From the NCBI GenBank assembly GCA_017450465.1, contig JAFSUW010000022.1, positions 30,410 through 62,409 of the forward strand: DNA of 32,000 nt, written 5' to 3'. Below, piece by piece: positions 21-6,037 of the stretch (its first letter is position 1; each line of letters starts with the position of its first letter). The notes below the pieces were generated by a model. That model did no database searches and was not told where the DNA came from. It saw only the letters and a program-made list of their open reading frames with translations. The position numbers and the translations under genes are program-made. This DNA is from Clostridia bacterium (GTDB lineage: Bacteria > Bacillota > Clostridia > TANB77 > RGIG9151).

Positions 21-1226
21 CTAATCCCTTTCAAAATCTATAAAATCATAACTTCGTTCTATCTTGCTTTCAACAACAACCTCTATTGGTACAGTTTTGA
101 AAATGCTTTCAAAATTATCTTTTATTTTTCTATATTTATACGGATGTTTTATTTTTAACTTTTCTTCAAAATTTAAAAAATCTGCATTTAACTCTTGCGA
201 TTTCTTTATGACATTCTCTATCTCTTTTTCTATTATATTTGCTAACTTTTCTTCAAATTTATTTACTAAATCTATGCTTAATTCTTCATCTTGTAAAACC
301 ATTTGAATGATATTGCTCTTATTTTTATTTTTCACAATTATTTTAGTAAGCATGTCACCATCAAATTTAAAATCAAAGTTTGTATTAGAACTAATTATTT
401 CTAACGACACTTCATTTTTGTTTTCATTTTCACCAACAATAGATATCACTGTATTACTAACTAAATTATTAACAAAATTAGCTGCTCTTGCTTCAGTTAA
501 ATTTAAATAATCTATTAATTTTGAATTTTTAAAAATTGCAAAACCTGCAAACTGTAAAACACTATTCGATTCTTTTTTATTCGAACTTTCTACTTCCCAC
601 TCTGTATTATATTTATTATCTCCCGCTGGCATTAGTGTAGGAATTAATCCGGATTTATTTTTAGTCACTAATAGTGGCAATATATCTAATATAGTCTCTT
701 CTTTACTATAACTAAATGAATTTATATTTTTAGTTAAATTATTTAATACATCTGAAATTTTCTCAATGGATTCTGTTTCATTTTGCATTAAATCACTTGC
801 ACTCATTTCTCTTGCAATAAAAACTTCCGATGTAAGCCGAAGTTCAACATCTCGCACAATAAAATCTATTGCATTTAAGAAATTATTTTTCGCCATATCC
901 TCGCCAATTATTACATACTTAATATGACCACCAGTAAATTGTTTAGATTTATAGTTTTGCAATGCACGAAGTGCTTTTTCAAAATTAGATGAACTAATAC
1001 TTACAACCTCTTGGCTATTACCATCTTCCCCCTCTTTTTTATCTGTACTTTCATCACGAACTATGCTAAGTAAAATATTTTCTTTATTATTATCAAGCCC
1101 TATTACTCGTACTGGTTCTAAATCACTTACTTCTAATCTTTTGGGGATGATTTTATCATTCCATGCAACAAGTATAAAAATAAACAAAATAAAAACAATA
1201 ATCTCTGTTTTATTATTCATCATCAT
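21..1226 (-). CDS. Spore germination receptor C subunit, Ger(x)C family
   Basis: 401-aa ORF overlapping the upstream A-subunit gene by 14 nt (translational coupling). N-terminal hydrophobic anchor ending ...LVAWNDK, which resembles the GerAC/GerKC ...GCW[DN] junction but lacks the Cys. Long polar K/N/E-rich body typical of the family. Confidence 0.75.
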   Translation of the reverse strand: MMMNNKTEIIVFILFIFILVAWNDKIIPKRLEVSDLEPVRVIGLDNNKENILLSIVRDESTDKKEGEDGNSQEVVSISSSNFEKALRALQNYKSKQFTGGHIKYVIIGEDMAKNNFLNAIDFIVRDVELRLTSEVFIAREMSASDLMQNETESIEKISDVLNNLTKNINSFSYSKEETILDILPLLVTKNKSGLIPTLMPAGDNKYNTEWEVESSNKKESNSVLQFAGFAIFKNSKLIDYLNLTEARAANFVNNLVSNTVISIVGENENKNEVSLEIISSNTNFDFKFDGDMLTKIIVKNKNKSNIIQMVLQDEELSIDLVNKFEEKLANIIEKEIENVIKKSQELNADFLNFEEKLKIKHPYKYRKIKDNFESIFKTVPIEVVVESKIERSYDFIDFERD

Positions 1227-3199: not shown

Positions 3200-3215
3200 C
3201 ACCCGTTATTTTTTT
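3185..3215. terminator. Bidirectional intrinsic terminator shared by convergent genes
   Basis: AAAAATAACGGGT-aac-ACCCGTTATTTTT: perfect stem with an A-run on one side and a T-run on the other. It overlaps both stop codons (3197-3199 plus strand, 3206-3208 minus strand). Confidence 0.75.
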
Positions 3216-4489
3216 ATGCCATAAAGTGAAGATAAAACTTCAAAATTCGTCCTAAAGTAATTTGTTATTGTCCAAAAACTTACTCCTCCTAAATCATATT
3301 TATTTACTAATCGTAACCTTGCCTCTATGCTTCTTGCATCATCAAACCATACTATATGTAACTTTCCATTTTTATCATAATAATTAAAATATGGTGCTTG
3401 AGCTTTAGAATCATATTTTATTTCCGCCCCTACATCTATTGCAAGATTTACCGCCGCTATGTTAGATAGACTCCTTGCTACTGTTCCTTGCCTATATGGC
3501 AAAGTCCAATCATAACCATAATTAGGCATTCCCATAAGTATTTTAAGAGGCGGAATTCTTGTTACTGCATATTTTAACACTTGCTCTACTCTATTTATTG
3601 GTGCTACCGCTTGTGGCTCACCTCTACTATATCCCCATTCATAAGTCATTAAAACAACAAAATCGGCAAGGGTTCCATGAAATGCATAATCATGTGCTTC
3701 ATATAATAAGCCCTGTTGATTATCACTTATTTTAGGTGCTAGTGCAGTTGATATAGTATAACCCTGTGGCTTAAAACGTTCTACTACTTTTCTTAGAAAG
3801 TTATTATAATTTTCTTTATCTGATGGATAGATATATTCAAAATCTATATTAATTCCAGAATATCCTTTACTTTTTAAGAGATATTCAATATTTCCAAGTA
3901 AAGTATCCTGTACTTCTTCACTATTCAGTATTAAACTTACCAATTCACTATTAAAGCCACCACTTTCACCTATATTAGTTATAACCATAAATGGCAAAGT
4001 GTTTTCCGCTCTTGCCATTCTTATTATATTTTCATCATTAATAGGTACAAGTAATCCATTTTCACGCACTTCATAACTAAACACACTTAAGAAAGATAAA
4101 TAGCTAAGTGACATCTTTAACGTGTTCATATTTATACTTGGAAATGCATAACCATTAACATATATATTTTTTAAAACCTCATTATTTTTAGGGACTATTA
4201 TTTTTTGTCCTGGATAAATTCTTCCTGGGTTTTTTATATCTGGATTAACCGCAAGAATTTGCGACACACTTATATTATATCTTCTTGCTATTCTATATAA
4301 ATTTTCACCATTTTTTATTACATATGTTATATATTCTGCCGGTATAATAAGAGTTTGCCCAATGGTAAGCTTACTTGCATCCTTAAGCTGGTTTATATCT
4401 ATTATTTTTTCTTCAGGTACATTATACCTATTTGCTAATTTATATACCGTATCATTTCTTATTACTTTATGTATAAACAAATAAATCAC
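3206..4489 (-). CDS. sleL: Spore cortex-lytic N-acetylglucosaminidase-like protein, two LysM domains plus GH18 domain (YaaH/SleL type)
   Basis: 427 aa. Two N-terminal LysM repeats (TVYKLANRYNV...GQTLIIP and NLYRIARRYNI...GQKIIVP). GH18 catalytic motif GINIDFEYI. Long stretches matching my memory of B. subtilis YaaH (YEAHDY, DFVVLMTYEWGYS, PQAV.PI, YGYDWTLPY, AQAPYF, VWFDDARSI). The annotated GTG start may instead be the TTG three codons downstream. Confidence 0.85.
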   Translation of the reverse strand: MIYLFIHKVIRNDTVYKLANRYNVPEEKIIDINQLKDASKLTIGQTLIIPAEYITYVIKNGENLYRIARRYNISVSQILAVNPDIKNPGRIYPGQKIIVPKNNEVLKNIYVNGYAFPSINMNTLKMSLSYLSFLSVFSYEVRENGLLVPINDENIIRMARAENTLPFMVITNIGESGGFNSELVSLILNSEEVQDTLLGNIEYLLKSKGYSGINIDFEYIYPSDKENYNNFLRKVVERFKPQGYTISTALAPKISDNQQGLLYEAHDYAFHGTLADFVVLMTYEWGYSRGEPQAVAPINRVEQVLKYAVTRIPPLKILMGMPNYGYDWTLPYRQGTVARSLSNIAAVNLAIDVGAEIKYDSKAQAPYFNYYDKNGKLHIVWFDDARSIEARLRLVNKYDLGGVSFWTITNYFRTNFEVLSSLYGIKK

Positions 4490-4544
4490 ATCCTTTTATA
4501 ACAAATATATGTCTTGTGATTTATTTTCATAACAAATTTTAAAC

Positions 4545-4584
4545 AAAAAAAATGGCGCGGCCTCCATGTTTTCGGTGCCACGCC
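4545..4584 (-). terminator. Intrinsic terminator ending the large ncRNA
   Basis: Sense: GGCGUGGC-A-CC-gaaaacau-GG-AG-GCCGCGCC, an 8-bp GC stem with one G-U plus a 2-bp extension, followed by A-UUUUUUUU. Confidence 0.8.
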
Positions 4585-5207
4585 TTTATATGTTCGATAA
4601 GCCAATGCGCCTTTGACCTACCGCTTTATAAGTTCCAATACTGCCGATTCTCCGTCTTGAACTTTCAACTTGATGGATATTTCCCCTCTTTAATAGCACA
4701 CCACTCGGGCCGGCTTTACCCGGAACACTTCGGCGTTACTTCACAAGACCCTCGACGCGCCACCTCTTCGACTGACCTGGCACGTTTTAAGCACCACGCC
4801 CTTCGCGGGGGGTATGACACCTCGCTTTCCCTTAGCACACTTCCCGCCTCGCCCTACGCTTTGGCGTTCCTGCACCACTGGAATAGCCCTGCTACTATAT
4901 CGCTATCTTCAAGGACAAACACGTCCTGCCTGGACTTCCACCTACCACATCGCACATAACTTAGCCGCTATCTATCACGTCTCATGCTCTTGCACTGTAC
5001 TCTCGCGTCGCTGCTACTCCATATGTTTCGTCCACAACGCTCGCACCTTGTGCTCCAGCACTCACTCGTGCCAAACAGCTTTCCAAGCTACCTTCGCTTT
5101 TCGTGCTACAACATCGCCCCGCTACTCCATATGTTTCGTCAAGGGTTCATTAGCACTCACGGTAAGTTTCTTTTCCAGCCCCTCCCTCTTCGGGAAGGAT
5201 ATCAACT

Positions 5208-5241
5208 AAAAAGCTCTGCTTCGGGAAACCAAAGCAGAGCT
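5208..5241 (-). terminator. Riboswitch expression-platform terminator (internal to the large transcript)
   Basis: Sense: AGCUCUGCUU-ugguuucccg-AAGCAGAGCU, a perfect 10-bp stem, followed by UUUU. The left arm and loop (GCUUUGGUUU) are complementary to aptamer segment AAACCAAGC, giving an alternative antiterminator pairing. Confidence 0.65.
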
Positions 5242-5257
5242 AAAAATTCAACTCACT

Positions 5258-5346
5258 TTCTTCGGCAACCCGGCTTCCATAGTCTTTCGACTTTAGGACC
5301 GATGGCTTTGTGCCCCAAGCTTTCGCTTGGTTTACCATTTCGGAAC
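5258..5346 (-). promoter_or_regulatory. c-di-GMP-I (GEMM-I) riboswitch aptamer
   Basis: Sense: GGUAAACC-AAGC-GAAA-GCUU-GGGGCACAAAGCC-AUCGG-UCCUAAAG-UC-GAAA-GA-CUAUGGAAGCCGGGUUGCCGAAG. It aligns block by block with V. cholerae Vc2 as I remember it: GGCAAACC-AUUC-GAAA-GAGU-GGGACGCAAAGCC-UCCGG-CCUAAACC...GGUAGGUAGCGGGGUUACCGAUGG. P1 hairpin carries a GAAA tetraloop. P2 carries the CCUAAAG/UAUGG tetraloop-receptor halves. Confidence 0.85.
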
Positions 5347-5356
5347 TTACAAATAT

Positions 5357-5386
5357 ATTATATCATTTATTAACATAAAAAGTCAA
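5357..5386 (-). promoter_or_regulatory. Sigma-A promoter of the riboswitch/large ncRNA transcript
   Basis: Sense: TTGACT-18 nt-TATAAT with an extended -10 (TGATATAAT). The predicted start is near G at 5350. Confidence 0.7.
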
Positions 5387-5419
5387 TACTTTTTTGAAAT
5401 TTTTTTTACTTTTTTTATT

Positions 5420-6037
5420 TTACTCCTCTTTCGCATAATTATCCGGTATTTCAAACAGTTTTTCATCAACTTCATTTGTGCATTTTACTACCTCAAAAAT
5501 ATTTTCTTTTATTTCAAGATACTCAAATGCTCCATCATAAATGTTGTAATAAAATCTTATTATATCATCATCTTTTTTTATTTCTTCATAACTATACTGT
5601 GCACCCATTATTTCTGCTAAACCACTTTCAAAATCACTATAATTCATATCTGCTATTGATTTATCAAATAGTATAAAATCATTTGAATAATCCATGTCTT
5701 CGTTTAATTTATATGTTTTGTTATCATGGTAGATAGTATAAAACTTACCATCTTTTTTTAATGTTCCTACAGAAAGTAACCCATCTACCCTTGTGTAAAT
5801 ATCTTCACCATTCTTGGCATATGTCATATTTATTTTTTCAAGACCATTTGCTATATCTTCAATTAAAGCAAGTTCCACTAAAAATGGTTTATCTGCATTT
5901 ATTTTTGTTTGATATAAAGTTATTGTTTTCCTTTGTGTAACCTCATGTGGTGACACATCTGGTTTTAATATTAAAAGTAATGCTACTATTATAATTATTA
6001 CAATTATAGTAATAAATCTTTTTCGCTTTTTATTCAT
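5420..6037 (-). CDS. Hypothetical membrane-anchored or secreted protein
   Basis: 205 aa. Basic N-terminus (MNKKRKRF) followed by a single hydrophobic helix, then a soluble Y/D/K-rich domain. GGAGGAATA RBS upstream. No family recognised. Confidence 0.5.
   Translation of the reverse strand: MNKKRKRFITIIVIIIIVALLLILKPDVSPHEVTQRKTITLYQTKINADKPFLVELALIEDIANGLEKINMTYAKNGEDIYTRVDGLLSVGTLKKDGKFYTIYHDNKTYKLNEDMDYSNDFILFDKSIADMNYSDFESGLAEIMGAQYSYEEIKKDDDIIRFYYNIYDGAFEYLEIKENIFEVVKCTNEVDEKLFEIPDNYAKEE

Follow-up and report, generated by a model that had tools for sequence, protein, structure and literature searches.

The 32-kb window analyzed here (the whole stretch of DNA under study, from an uncultured Clostridia bacterium with a genome of ~27% GC) carries on its minus strand a riboswitch for cyclic di-GMP (c-di-GMP) that appears to control a large structured RNA rather than a protein-coding gene. 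An earlier note on this DNA had proposed such an arrangement, and our analysis supports its core, namely, a c-di-GMP-I aptamer with a terminator as expression platform that controls read-through into a structured non-coding RNA. Homologous units were found in three further metagenomic lineages (L005, L064, and L090), which together with the window locus make up the four lineages compared below. Along the minus strand, the order is promoter, c-di-GMP-I aptamer, terminator, GC-rich RNA body, and second terminator. Judged from sequence, these parts form a stand-alone RNA gene and not a leader, because the gene immediately downstream differs among the lineages and is convergent in one of them. We regard the architecture of this unit and the OFF logic of its switch, taken jointly, as quite probable. 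Its elements are the following.

5386-5357, minus strand: sigma-70-type promoter, TTGACT-18-TGnTATAAT, with an extended -10 TG and 11 of 12 matches.
5346-5261, minus strand: c-di-GMP-I (GEMM-I) aptamer, RF01051, 78.7 bits, with a GAAA tetraloop and its CCUAAAG/UAUGG receptor.
5272-5260, minus strand: probable switching sequence CGGGUUGCCGAAG, comprising the 3' strands of aptamer helices P2 and P1 plus a tail.
5241-5212, minus strand: stem of the intrinsic terminator of the expression platform (13 bp, UUUC loop, UUUU), with the U tract extending to 5208.
5209 to ~4547, minus strand: RNA body of ~660 nt, G+A-rich, 52-60% GC, with its own 3' terminator.
4584-4545, minus strand: intrinsic terminator of the RNA itself, a GGCGUGGC...GCCGCGCC hairpin plus U8, with 3-4 compensatory pairs across lineages.

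The aptamer is an ordinary member of RF01051, and binding of c-di-GMP is predicted from its sequence. In the covariance-model scan with Rfam 15, it scored 78.7 bits against a gathering score of 35 (E value of 4e-14, positions 1-87 of the 87 in the model), with RF01051 being the best-scoring family within clan CL00126, so that the GEMM-I assignment made in the earlier note holds over the full model. The sequence elements on which that assignment had been based (GGUAAACC, the GAAA-capped hairpin, GGGGCACAAAGCC, CCUAAAG/UAUGG, and GCCGGGUUGCCGAAG) are all present where they had been placed. The orthologous aptamers reach 76.3 bits in L005 and 77.6 bits in L064. Both hairpins of the tetraloop-receptor fold are recognizable, with the GAAA loop on a CCAAGC/GCUUGG stem and receptor halves that fit the RF01051 consensus, and the minimum free energy (MFE) fold of the leader recovers them both together with P1 (GGUAA/UUGCC). 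A G occupies model position 11 of the RF01051 alignment (AAAUGGUAAACC), which fits selectivity for c-di-GMP. We take this G, which precedes GGC/GGU-AAA, to be G20 of Vc2, and an A at the same place to be the mark of the GEMM-Ib variants selective for cyclic GMP-AMP.

The expression platform is an intrinsic terminator. The earlier note had correctly placed a terminator hairpin here, although its stem is longer than the 10 bp given there (13 bp at 5241-5212, then UUUU), and two of the stem pairs change from G-C to A-U in a compensatory manner in L005 and L090. The leader folds with a z score of -4.4, and in the MFE structure the aptamer and the terminator coexist; as the two are compatible, the folded (ligand-bound) aptamer would permit termination. 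What competes with the terminator is less clear-cut. The earlier note had suggested that AAACCAAGC at 5333-5325 pairs with GCUUUGGUUU at 5235-5226. Both segments lie at these coordinates and can form 9 bp with one bulge, but the resulting structure is ~10 kcal/mol worse than the MFE fold of aptamer plus terminator. A local alternative appears to be preferred. The sequence CGGGUUGCCGAAG (5272-5260) is a near copy of the terminator 3' arm (repeat family D4) and can pair with CUUUGGUUUCCCG (5234-5222) through a core of GCCGAAG:CUUUGGU, a pairing that overlaps the P1 3' strand UUGCC. This fold is the MFE structure of the nascent transcript in the window, L005, and L064, and it costs 4-8 kcal/mol within the full leader, so the fold energies make the local anti-terminator the more likely of the two. 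The partners are invariant across the lineages and hence give no covariation signal to read. The choice between the pairings does not alter the predicted direction of the switch, as ligand binding would remove the competing strand under either of them and the terminator would form. The OFF switch predicted by the earlier note is therefore kept in both models.

An OFF terminator would match what is known from Clostridioides difficile, in which 11 of the 12 c-di-GMP-I switches are of this kind (PMC3649979). The window riboswitch shares with them (e.g., Cdi1_3 before flgB) the RF01051 aptamer, the terminator platform, and the predicted OFF logic (PMC3649979), but it differs in that the controlled transcript is not an mRNA and in that the leader is unusually conserved within the family. 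In the mechanism that we propose, a constitutive-looking promoter would drive the riboswitch with the intrinsic terminator as its platform. At low c-di-GMP, the aptamer 3' strand CGGGUUGCCGAAG would pair cotranscriptionally with the terminator 5' arm CUUUGGUUUCCCG, and the polymerase would read on into the ~660-nt structured non-coding RNA up to the terminator of the latter. At high c-di-GMP, the ligand would hold the CGGGUUGCCGAAG strand in P1 and P2 of the aptamer, the terminator would form, and only the ~145-nt leader would be made. From the position of the promoter, transcription is predicted to start at ~5350, and the terminator at 4584-4545 is the predicted 3' end of a read-through transcript of ~800 nt. 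The same promoter is found in L064, and a -10 element in L005, while the sequence scan of the minus strand gave no further promoter-like site between the promoter at 5386-5357 and the end of the RNA.

Several properties indicate that the region downstream of the switch is not coding. GC content jumps from ~27% in the flanks to 52-60% across positions 4550-5205. The survey of open reading frames (ORFs) in the window gave no credible minus-strand ORF downstream of the switch, and no sense ORF is conserved across the four lineages, in which peptide similarity consists of short patches in all frames. For the sense strand, folding yields -223.9 kcal/mol (z = -5.2 versus shuffled sequence), and for the antisense strand -148.9 kcal/mol (z = -0.3), an asymmetry that a structured RNA rich in G-U would be expected to show; the RNA body of L005 has a fold z score of -3.2. 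Together with the layout shared by the four lineages, the lack of a conserved ORF and the folding of the sense strand bear out the earlier claim of a non-coding structured RNA in place of an ORF, and its length of ~660 nt (5209 to ~4547, with its own terminator) agrees with the ~650 nt suggested. Apart from the aptamer, Rfam 15 yielded nothing above half the gathering score of the respective family, either for window positions 4300-5500 at an E value of ≤10 or for L005 positions 1-1200 at an E value of ≤1. There were no Rfam covariance-model matches to OLE, GOLLD, ROOL, HEARO, raiA, group I or II introns, RNase P, or transfer-messenger RNA (tmRNA), and ARAGORN detected neither tRNA nor tmRNA. 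A modular RNA of ~660-870 nt was not found in Rfam 15 or in the literature searched, and from its sequence the RNA body is a candidate new family that would be previously undescribed.

The strand opposite the RNA does contain ORFs. In L005, a "gene" of 141 amino acids (aa) without a Pfam hit has been called antisense to the RNA (positions 215-640, minus strand of that locus), and ORFs of comparable size (129-135 aa) lie on the plus strand of the window within 4552-5373. The 141-aa gene is very likely spurious, and such antisense ORFs arise in L005 and the window because the C+U-rich antisense strand has few stop codons. The use of these ORFs as protein-database queries for homologs was discarded after a local test, in which even L064 reached no more than ~31 bits once the stretch opposite the aptamer was set aside.

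These ORFs are relevant to the possibility that the unit encodes a type I antitoxin RNA, antisense to a small toxin ORF, or else a small protein. There is a precedent for it, since two prophage c-di-GMP-I riboswitches of C. difficile control the antitoxin RNAs RCd11 and RCd12 (PMC11477304), which are small antisense RNAs of prophage toxin-antitoxin modules with a second, stronger promoter downstream of the switch (PMC11477304); one orphan c-di-GMP-I switch is listed in the same species (PMC11477304). The window unit resembles these systems in that a c-di-GMP-I switch is followed by a non-coding RNA. Unlike them, it has no toxin ORF, no prophage context, and no second promoter-like site, and its RNA is ~660 nt long and highly structured. 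The four lineages share no conserved small hydrophobic antisense ORF, and the plus-strand ORFs of 129-135 aa, which are to be expected in C+U-rich sequence, are not conserved as protein outside the part antisense to the aptamer. The absence of a conserved sense ORF argues likewise against a small-protein gene, while the neighbors are chromosomal housekeeping genes and the RNA has no similarity to phages or plasmids. On the basis of these sequence comparisons, both forms of the idea appear largely refuted, and we give them next to no credence. The RCd11 and RCd12 precedent also tempers the earlier suggestion that a c-di-GMP-I switch gating a large non-coding RNA was unheard of: the principle of a riboswitch-gated non-coding RNA is known, and what is new is the large modular RNA under its control.

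The homologous units were recovered in different ways. Four metagenome contigs hold a copy 100% identical to that of the window over 921 nt and add no information. L005 was located by synteny through the LysM/GH18 gene (ortholog 67% identical) and has the layout of the window unit, with a -10 element, the aptamer, a terminator, a GC-rich RNA of ~870 nt, and a second terminator. L064 was located by a degenerate scan for two copies of a motif of the RNA (GAAAC-N4-GGAGTA twice), and L090 by synteny through GerA, its contig starting inside the aptamer. The RNA bodies form two pairs, the window with L064 (78% identity) and L005 with L090 (51%). Across the pairs, identity is 35-37%, whereas the leaders are 89-97% identical wherever the leader is complete. 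The leader thus stands well above not only the RNA bodies (35-37%) but also the flanking proteins (~67%), and this degree of conservation, far beyond what the aptamer fold needs, suggests an additional constraint, for example, a function for the terminated ~145-nt RNA.

All four loci sit 0-3 genes upstream of a DUF1622-GerA gene pair. The RNA is followed immediately by a LysM/GH18 gene in the window and L005, by an AI-2E transporter gene in L090, and by the convergent DUF1622 gene in L064. This bears on the possibility that the RNA is a long cis-acting leader, i.e., a ~660-nt 5' untranslated region that regulates the co-oriented LysM/GH18 or AI-2E gene and whose 3' hairpin is a second attenuator. 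Three of the four lineages do have a co-oriented gene next, which starts 50-70 nt after the RNA, and the flgB gene of C. difficile has a long unexplained leader behind its c-di-GMP-I switch. In L064, however, the terminator of the RNA is followed directly by the convergent gene, with no co-oriented gene ahead of GerA, and the upstream gene, which differs as well, carries a terminator of its own. With U7-U8, the 3' terminator of the RNA is strong, and it is kept by covariation in all four lineages. Outside the clade, the most closely related LysM orthologs have upstream regions that are short and lack the RNA. As the flanking genes differ and the downstream gene of L064 is convergent, a cis-acting leader is very unlikely. 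What we find instead is an aptamer and terminator before an ORF-less RNA with a 3' terminator of its own, and the flanks of L064 confirm the boundaries of the unit.

The neighborhood itself is variable. The LysM/GH18 gene, which codes for a YaaH/SleL-like spore cortex hydrolase (3206-4480 in the window), is present in the window and L005, absent in L064 (1000-1040), and replaced by the AI-2E transporter in L090 (930-985), so that this slot beside the operon of the GerA germinant receptor is a hotspot for the turnover of genes, while the RNA remains. The 60-nt AT-rich spacer between the terminator of the RNA and the start of the LysM/GH18 gene (4490-4545, minus strand of the window) holds a CATATATTT-like sequence that, judged by eye, could be a -10 element of the mother-cell sporulation (sigma-E/K) type, in which case the LysM/GH18 gene would have its own promoter.

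Beyond these four lineages, synteny searches with the LysM/GH18, GerA, and DUF1622 orthologs gave five contigs of more distant relatives (L006, L007, and L093-L095) without the RNA at the locus examined, while L091, L092, and L160-L162 end short of its expected position and are uninformative. Nothing similar to the RNA was found in the plasmid, phage, and viral collections, and scans with the exact 20-mer and 19-mer motifs gave no match in viral contigs or genome contigs. The two-copy pattern that led to L064 retrieved 74 loci from metagenomes and genomes, all of which, except L064, were unrelated tandem repeats, mostly coding. Scans of viral contigs with a single degenerate motif and with invariant blocks returned 8, 19, and 45 matches, which we discarded as chance (coding frames or no nhmmer match). 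Among the repeats, tandem near-identical 95-nt units occur in termite-gut contigs (L029, 474-860; also L011, L014, L025, L033, L040, L045, L051, L052, and L059). Their core is AGAAAGAAAC-N4-GGAGTACAGAAG, the repeat length is not divisible by 3, and the array is not crossed by any long ORF. They have only the short GAAAC-N4-GGAGTA core in common with the motif of the window, nhmmer gives no similarity, and the arrays have the look of a satellite-type repeat that has no relation to the RNA studied here. Another array, a 119-nt tandem repeat with a ACGCCCGAAACATGTGGAGTAATTTAG core (L035, 6250-7340), adjoins sub-threshold Rfam matches to eukaryotic microRNA precursors (mir-3913, 63.8 bits against a gathering score of 100) and is probably host or eukaryotic DNA within the termite-gut metagenome.

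Within the RNA body, the alignments and consensus folds define the following elements.

5209-5201, minus strand: 5' strand of the closing helix, UUAGUUGAU, long-range and predicted, overlapping the U tract of the platform terminator.
5198-5181, minus strand: 5' hairpin H1, CCUUCCC-GAAG-AGGGAGG, with four compensatory pairs across the four lineages.
5152-5109, minus strand: hairpin module copy 1, with the tip GACGAAAC-AUAU-GGAGUAGC at 5140-5121; 48.6 bits with module model R1.
5044-5001, minus strand: hairpin module copy 2, with the tip at 5032-5013 capping a long irregular arm; 54.6 bits with module model R1.
4926-4913, minus strand: central hairpin GGAC-GUGUUU-GUCC (GGACGUGUUUGUCC), identical in the window, L005, and L090, with one G-U change in L064.
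4912-4690, minus strand: variable GC-rich multi-helix domain, conserved between the window and L064 only.
4684-4625, minus strand: conserved 3' domain AAUAUCCAUCAAGUUGAAAGUUCAAGACGGAGAAUCGGC...GGAACUUA, with long invariant runs in the four-way alignment.
4623-4595, minus strand: penultimate hairpin CGGUAGG...CUUAUCG, with one-sided changes (G-U to G-C or A-U).

In this RNA family the frame is conserved, and both the number of modules and the insert are variable. The predicted pairings are accompanied by compensatory changes, with 32 such pairs in the fold of L005 and L090 and 12 in the four-way framework. The closing helix, which was found independently in the consensus folds of the window with L064 and of L005 with L090, pairs the nucleotides immediately following the riboswitch terminator (UUAGUUGAU or UUGAUG) with a segment of the 3' domain (AUCAAGUUGA or CAUCAA; 3' strand at 4674-4665). 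The consensus of that domain is AUCAAGUUGRAA...GGACGGAG...GGAACUUA. The closing helix is nearly invariant, with one variable position reading A-U, G-C, G-C, and A.C in the four sequences, and according to the folds it is likely to close the whole body. In the resulting model, it would join the nucleotides after the terminator to the 3' domain and enclose H1, 2-4 modules, the GGACGUGUUUGUCC hairpin, and the lineage-variable domain. The domain found at 4912-4690 in the window is replaced by extra modules and other helices in L005 and L090, while the stem of the penultimate hairpin is kept in most lineages, with three pairs broken or gapped in L090.

The most characteristic component of the family is the hairpin module, the 20-nt tip of which (GACGAAAC-N4-GGAGUAGC) occurs in two copies in the window, two in L064, four in L005, and three in L090. 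Both 8-nt halves of the tip are invariant in all 11 copies, and the four central bases follow the pattern R-Y-A-N. The sequences flanking the tip vary and yet stay complementary (GCGUUGUG/AGCGACGC, GGUCAUG/AGUGAUC, AAUCAUG/AGUGGUU, and GACCAUG/AGUGGUU). In the gap-free alignment of the copies, 75% of the stem cells are paired versus 65% in shuffles, the covariation score is 0.329 versus 0.163, each of these values was reached in none of 500 shuffles, and every slid register scores lower; the copies mix orthologs and paralogs and are not independent, so these figures count in favor of the stem without being probabilities. In every copy, the sequence of the tip is C-GAA-AC / GG-AGUA-G, with C3-G19 and C8-G13 available as pairs, while thermodynamic folding pairs A2-U17 and C3-G16 instead. 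What we take to be the consensus of the sarcin-ricin/loop-E (bulged-G) motif, 5'-GAA-3' opposite 5'-AGUA-3' between Watson-Crick pairs, is matched by the tip, and we infer that the invariant tips may fold as this motif. Since non-canonical pairs cannot covary, a loop-E motif would explain why the strands of the tip are frozen. A reading of GACGAAAC as a hammerhead or K-turn was discarded on inspection, as a CUGANGA partner is missing, no 3-nt bulge is followed by GA, and Rfam gave no ribozyme match.

Partial resemblances to the module are scattered through the RNA. Half-motifs with AGUAGC lie outside the full modules in the window (~4888-4900) and L064, where the sequence is AUAGUAGCAGGG, and in L005 (~786-800) and L090 (~708-722), where it is CUUAGUAGCGAGGUU; they could be degenerate modules or additional S-turn strands. 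The loop of the RNA terminator in the window, CCGAAAACAUGGAGG, resembles the module tip, and a near-repeat on the minus strand links 4781-4803 with the 5' half of that terminator at 4565-4587 (AAGGGCGUGGUGCUUAAAACGUG versus AAAGGCGUGGCACCGAAAACAUG, 74% identical). Neither of these last two likenesses is kept in L005 or L090.

An invariant, sequence-specific tip on covarying stems in variable copy number would fit a multivalent binding site, and by analogy our favored, tentative guess is that the RNA serves as a multivalent scaffold or sponge for protein and is produced when c-di-GMP is low. It would act in trans on an RNA-binding protein, only at low c-di-GMP, with the invariant loop-E-type tips serving as the binding sites. 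The best functional analogy is provided by EutX of Enterococcus and Rli55 of Listeria, RNAs controlled by adenosylcobalamin riboswitches that sequester the ANTAR regulator EutV. There, too, a riboswitch and a terminator decide the completion of an RNA that carries repeated hairpin sites. Ligand and aptamer are different, the 20-nt hairpin motif is new and not an ANTAR substrate, and the window RNA is several times longer; sequestration is the function of EutX and Rli55, and for the window RNA it is suggested by this likeness. In its more specific form, a c-di-GMP-repressed modular RNA that titrates or scaffolds an RNA-binding regulator in spore-forming Clostridia through 2-4 loop-E-type tips, the proposal is possible but doubtful.

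Some points weigh against this interpretation. No partner protein was found, and neither a further copy with the module covariance model nor a site matching the hairpin motif was detected elsewhere in the 126 kb of sequence examined, which leaves no evidence of a natural site that the RNA would mimic. The loop-E assignment is a match to a consensus and not a structural test. Transcription, read-through, and the 3' end of the RNA are predicted from sequence only. The power of covariation is limited because there are just four lineages, forming two close pairs, and the core elements (module tips, GGAC hairpin, closing helix, and 3' domain) are beyond covariation testing because they are invariant. 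Last, in the fold of a mini-construct, a local pairing (GUUGA with UCGGC) competes for the conserved AUCAAGUUGA segment of the closing helix.

If a protein is the partner, the carbon storage regulator CsrA is a tempting candidate. A sponge of the CsrA/Rsm type would sequester CsrA at low c-di-GMP and thereby derepress flagellin or motility genes. Like CsrB and RsmZ, the RNA has a short conserved hairpin motif that contains A-N-GGA in variable copy number. The invariant A11 gives ANGGA in all 11 copies, this motif is enriched in L005 (z of 3.6) and L090 (z of 3.2), and expression at low c-di-GMP would coincide with that of flagellar genes in Clostridia. However, ANGGA is not significantly enriched in the window or L064 (z of 1.0-1.7), and GGA shows no enrichment in any of the RNAs of the four lineages (z of 0.2-1.0), so that the many GGA motifs, enriched and placed in loops, that mark CsrB and RsmZ are not seen here. 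There are only 2-4 sites per RNA, and the 16 invariant bases of each exceed what CsrA needs, so its recognition leaves the invariance of GACGAAAC and GUAGC unexplained. No csrA, fliW, or flagellar gene was found within the window, and to our knowledge the protein antagonist FliW is the only CsrA antagonist in Firmicutes. We consider a CsrA sponge improbable; if true, it would amount to a CsrB-like RNA in Firmicutes.

A scaffold or sponge has also to be weighed against an RNA that works without a dedicated protein partner, as a self-assembling multimer or a ribozyme whose tertiary or intermolecular contacts would be made by the tips and the GGAC-GUGUUU-GUCC loop. The ornate RNAs OLE, GOLLD, ROOL, HEARO, and raiA are a natural comparison, as they are likewise large, GC-rich, multi-helix RNAs without coding capacity from AT-rich Firmicute genomes and mostly uncultured hosts, and ROOL, GOLLD, and OLE have been reported to be self-assembling multimers. 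The size of the window RNA, its many helices, its closing helix, and its invariant loop and internal-loop sequences, typical of tertiary contacts, would suit such a machine. In addition, tip positions 9 and 10 are a purine and a pyrimidine in 11 of 11 modules, and the resulting AAACRY can pair with the GUGUUU loop. That kissing contact was nevertheless rejected as weak and no better than chance, since six-mers compatible with GUGUUU number 18-25 per RNA versus 17-22 in shuffles and the duplexes amount to -1 to -3.7 kcal/mol. The family shows no sequence or structure match in Rfam to the ornate RNAs, nor a match to any known ribozyme or large-RNA family at an E value of ≤10, and we know of none of those five RNAs under riboswitch control. 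With 2 to 4 modules, depending on the lineage, and a central domain that is not conserved, the family is a poor fit to a fixed three-dimensional machine, and this alternative is in our view unlikely.

Riboswitches for c-di-GMP are normally read as gene-by-gene switches on mRNAs. The unit described here implies that, in this Clostridia bacterium, c-di-GMP may act through a large RNA and not a protein gene. Its distribution is narrow, comprising four metagenomic lineages from one uncultured Clostridia clade. Unlike other large ornate RNAs, it comes with a known input signal, so its biology can be tested directly through changes in c-di-GMP, and pull-downs have a concrete handle in the invariant 20-nt tip of the hairpin. 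If the RNA acts in trans, the level of c-di-GMP would determine how much of a macromolecular regulator or scaffold is present, adding a regulatory layer between the second messenger and phenotypes such as motility, adhesion, and sporulation. Should the titration or scaffold reading be true, the RNA would be the first of the protein-sequestering kind to be controlled by a second messenger, it might also be the first sponge for a global regulator to come from Firmicutes, and c-di-GMP would gain a post-transcriptional output of its own.

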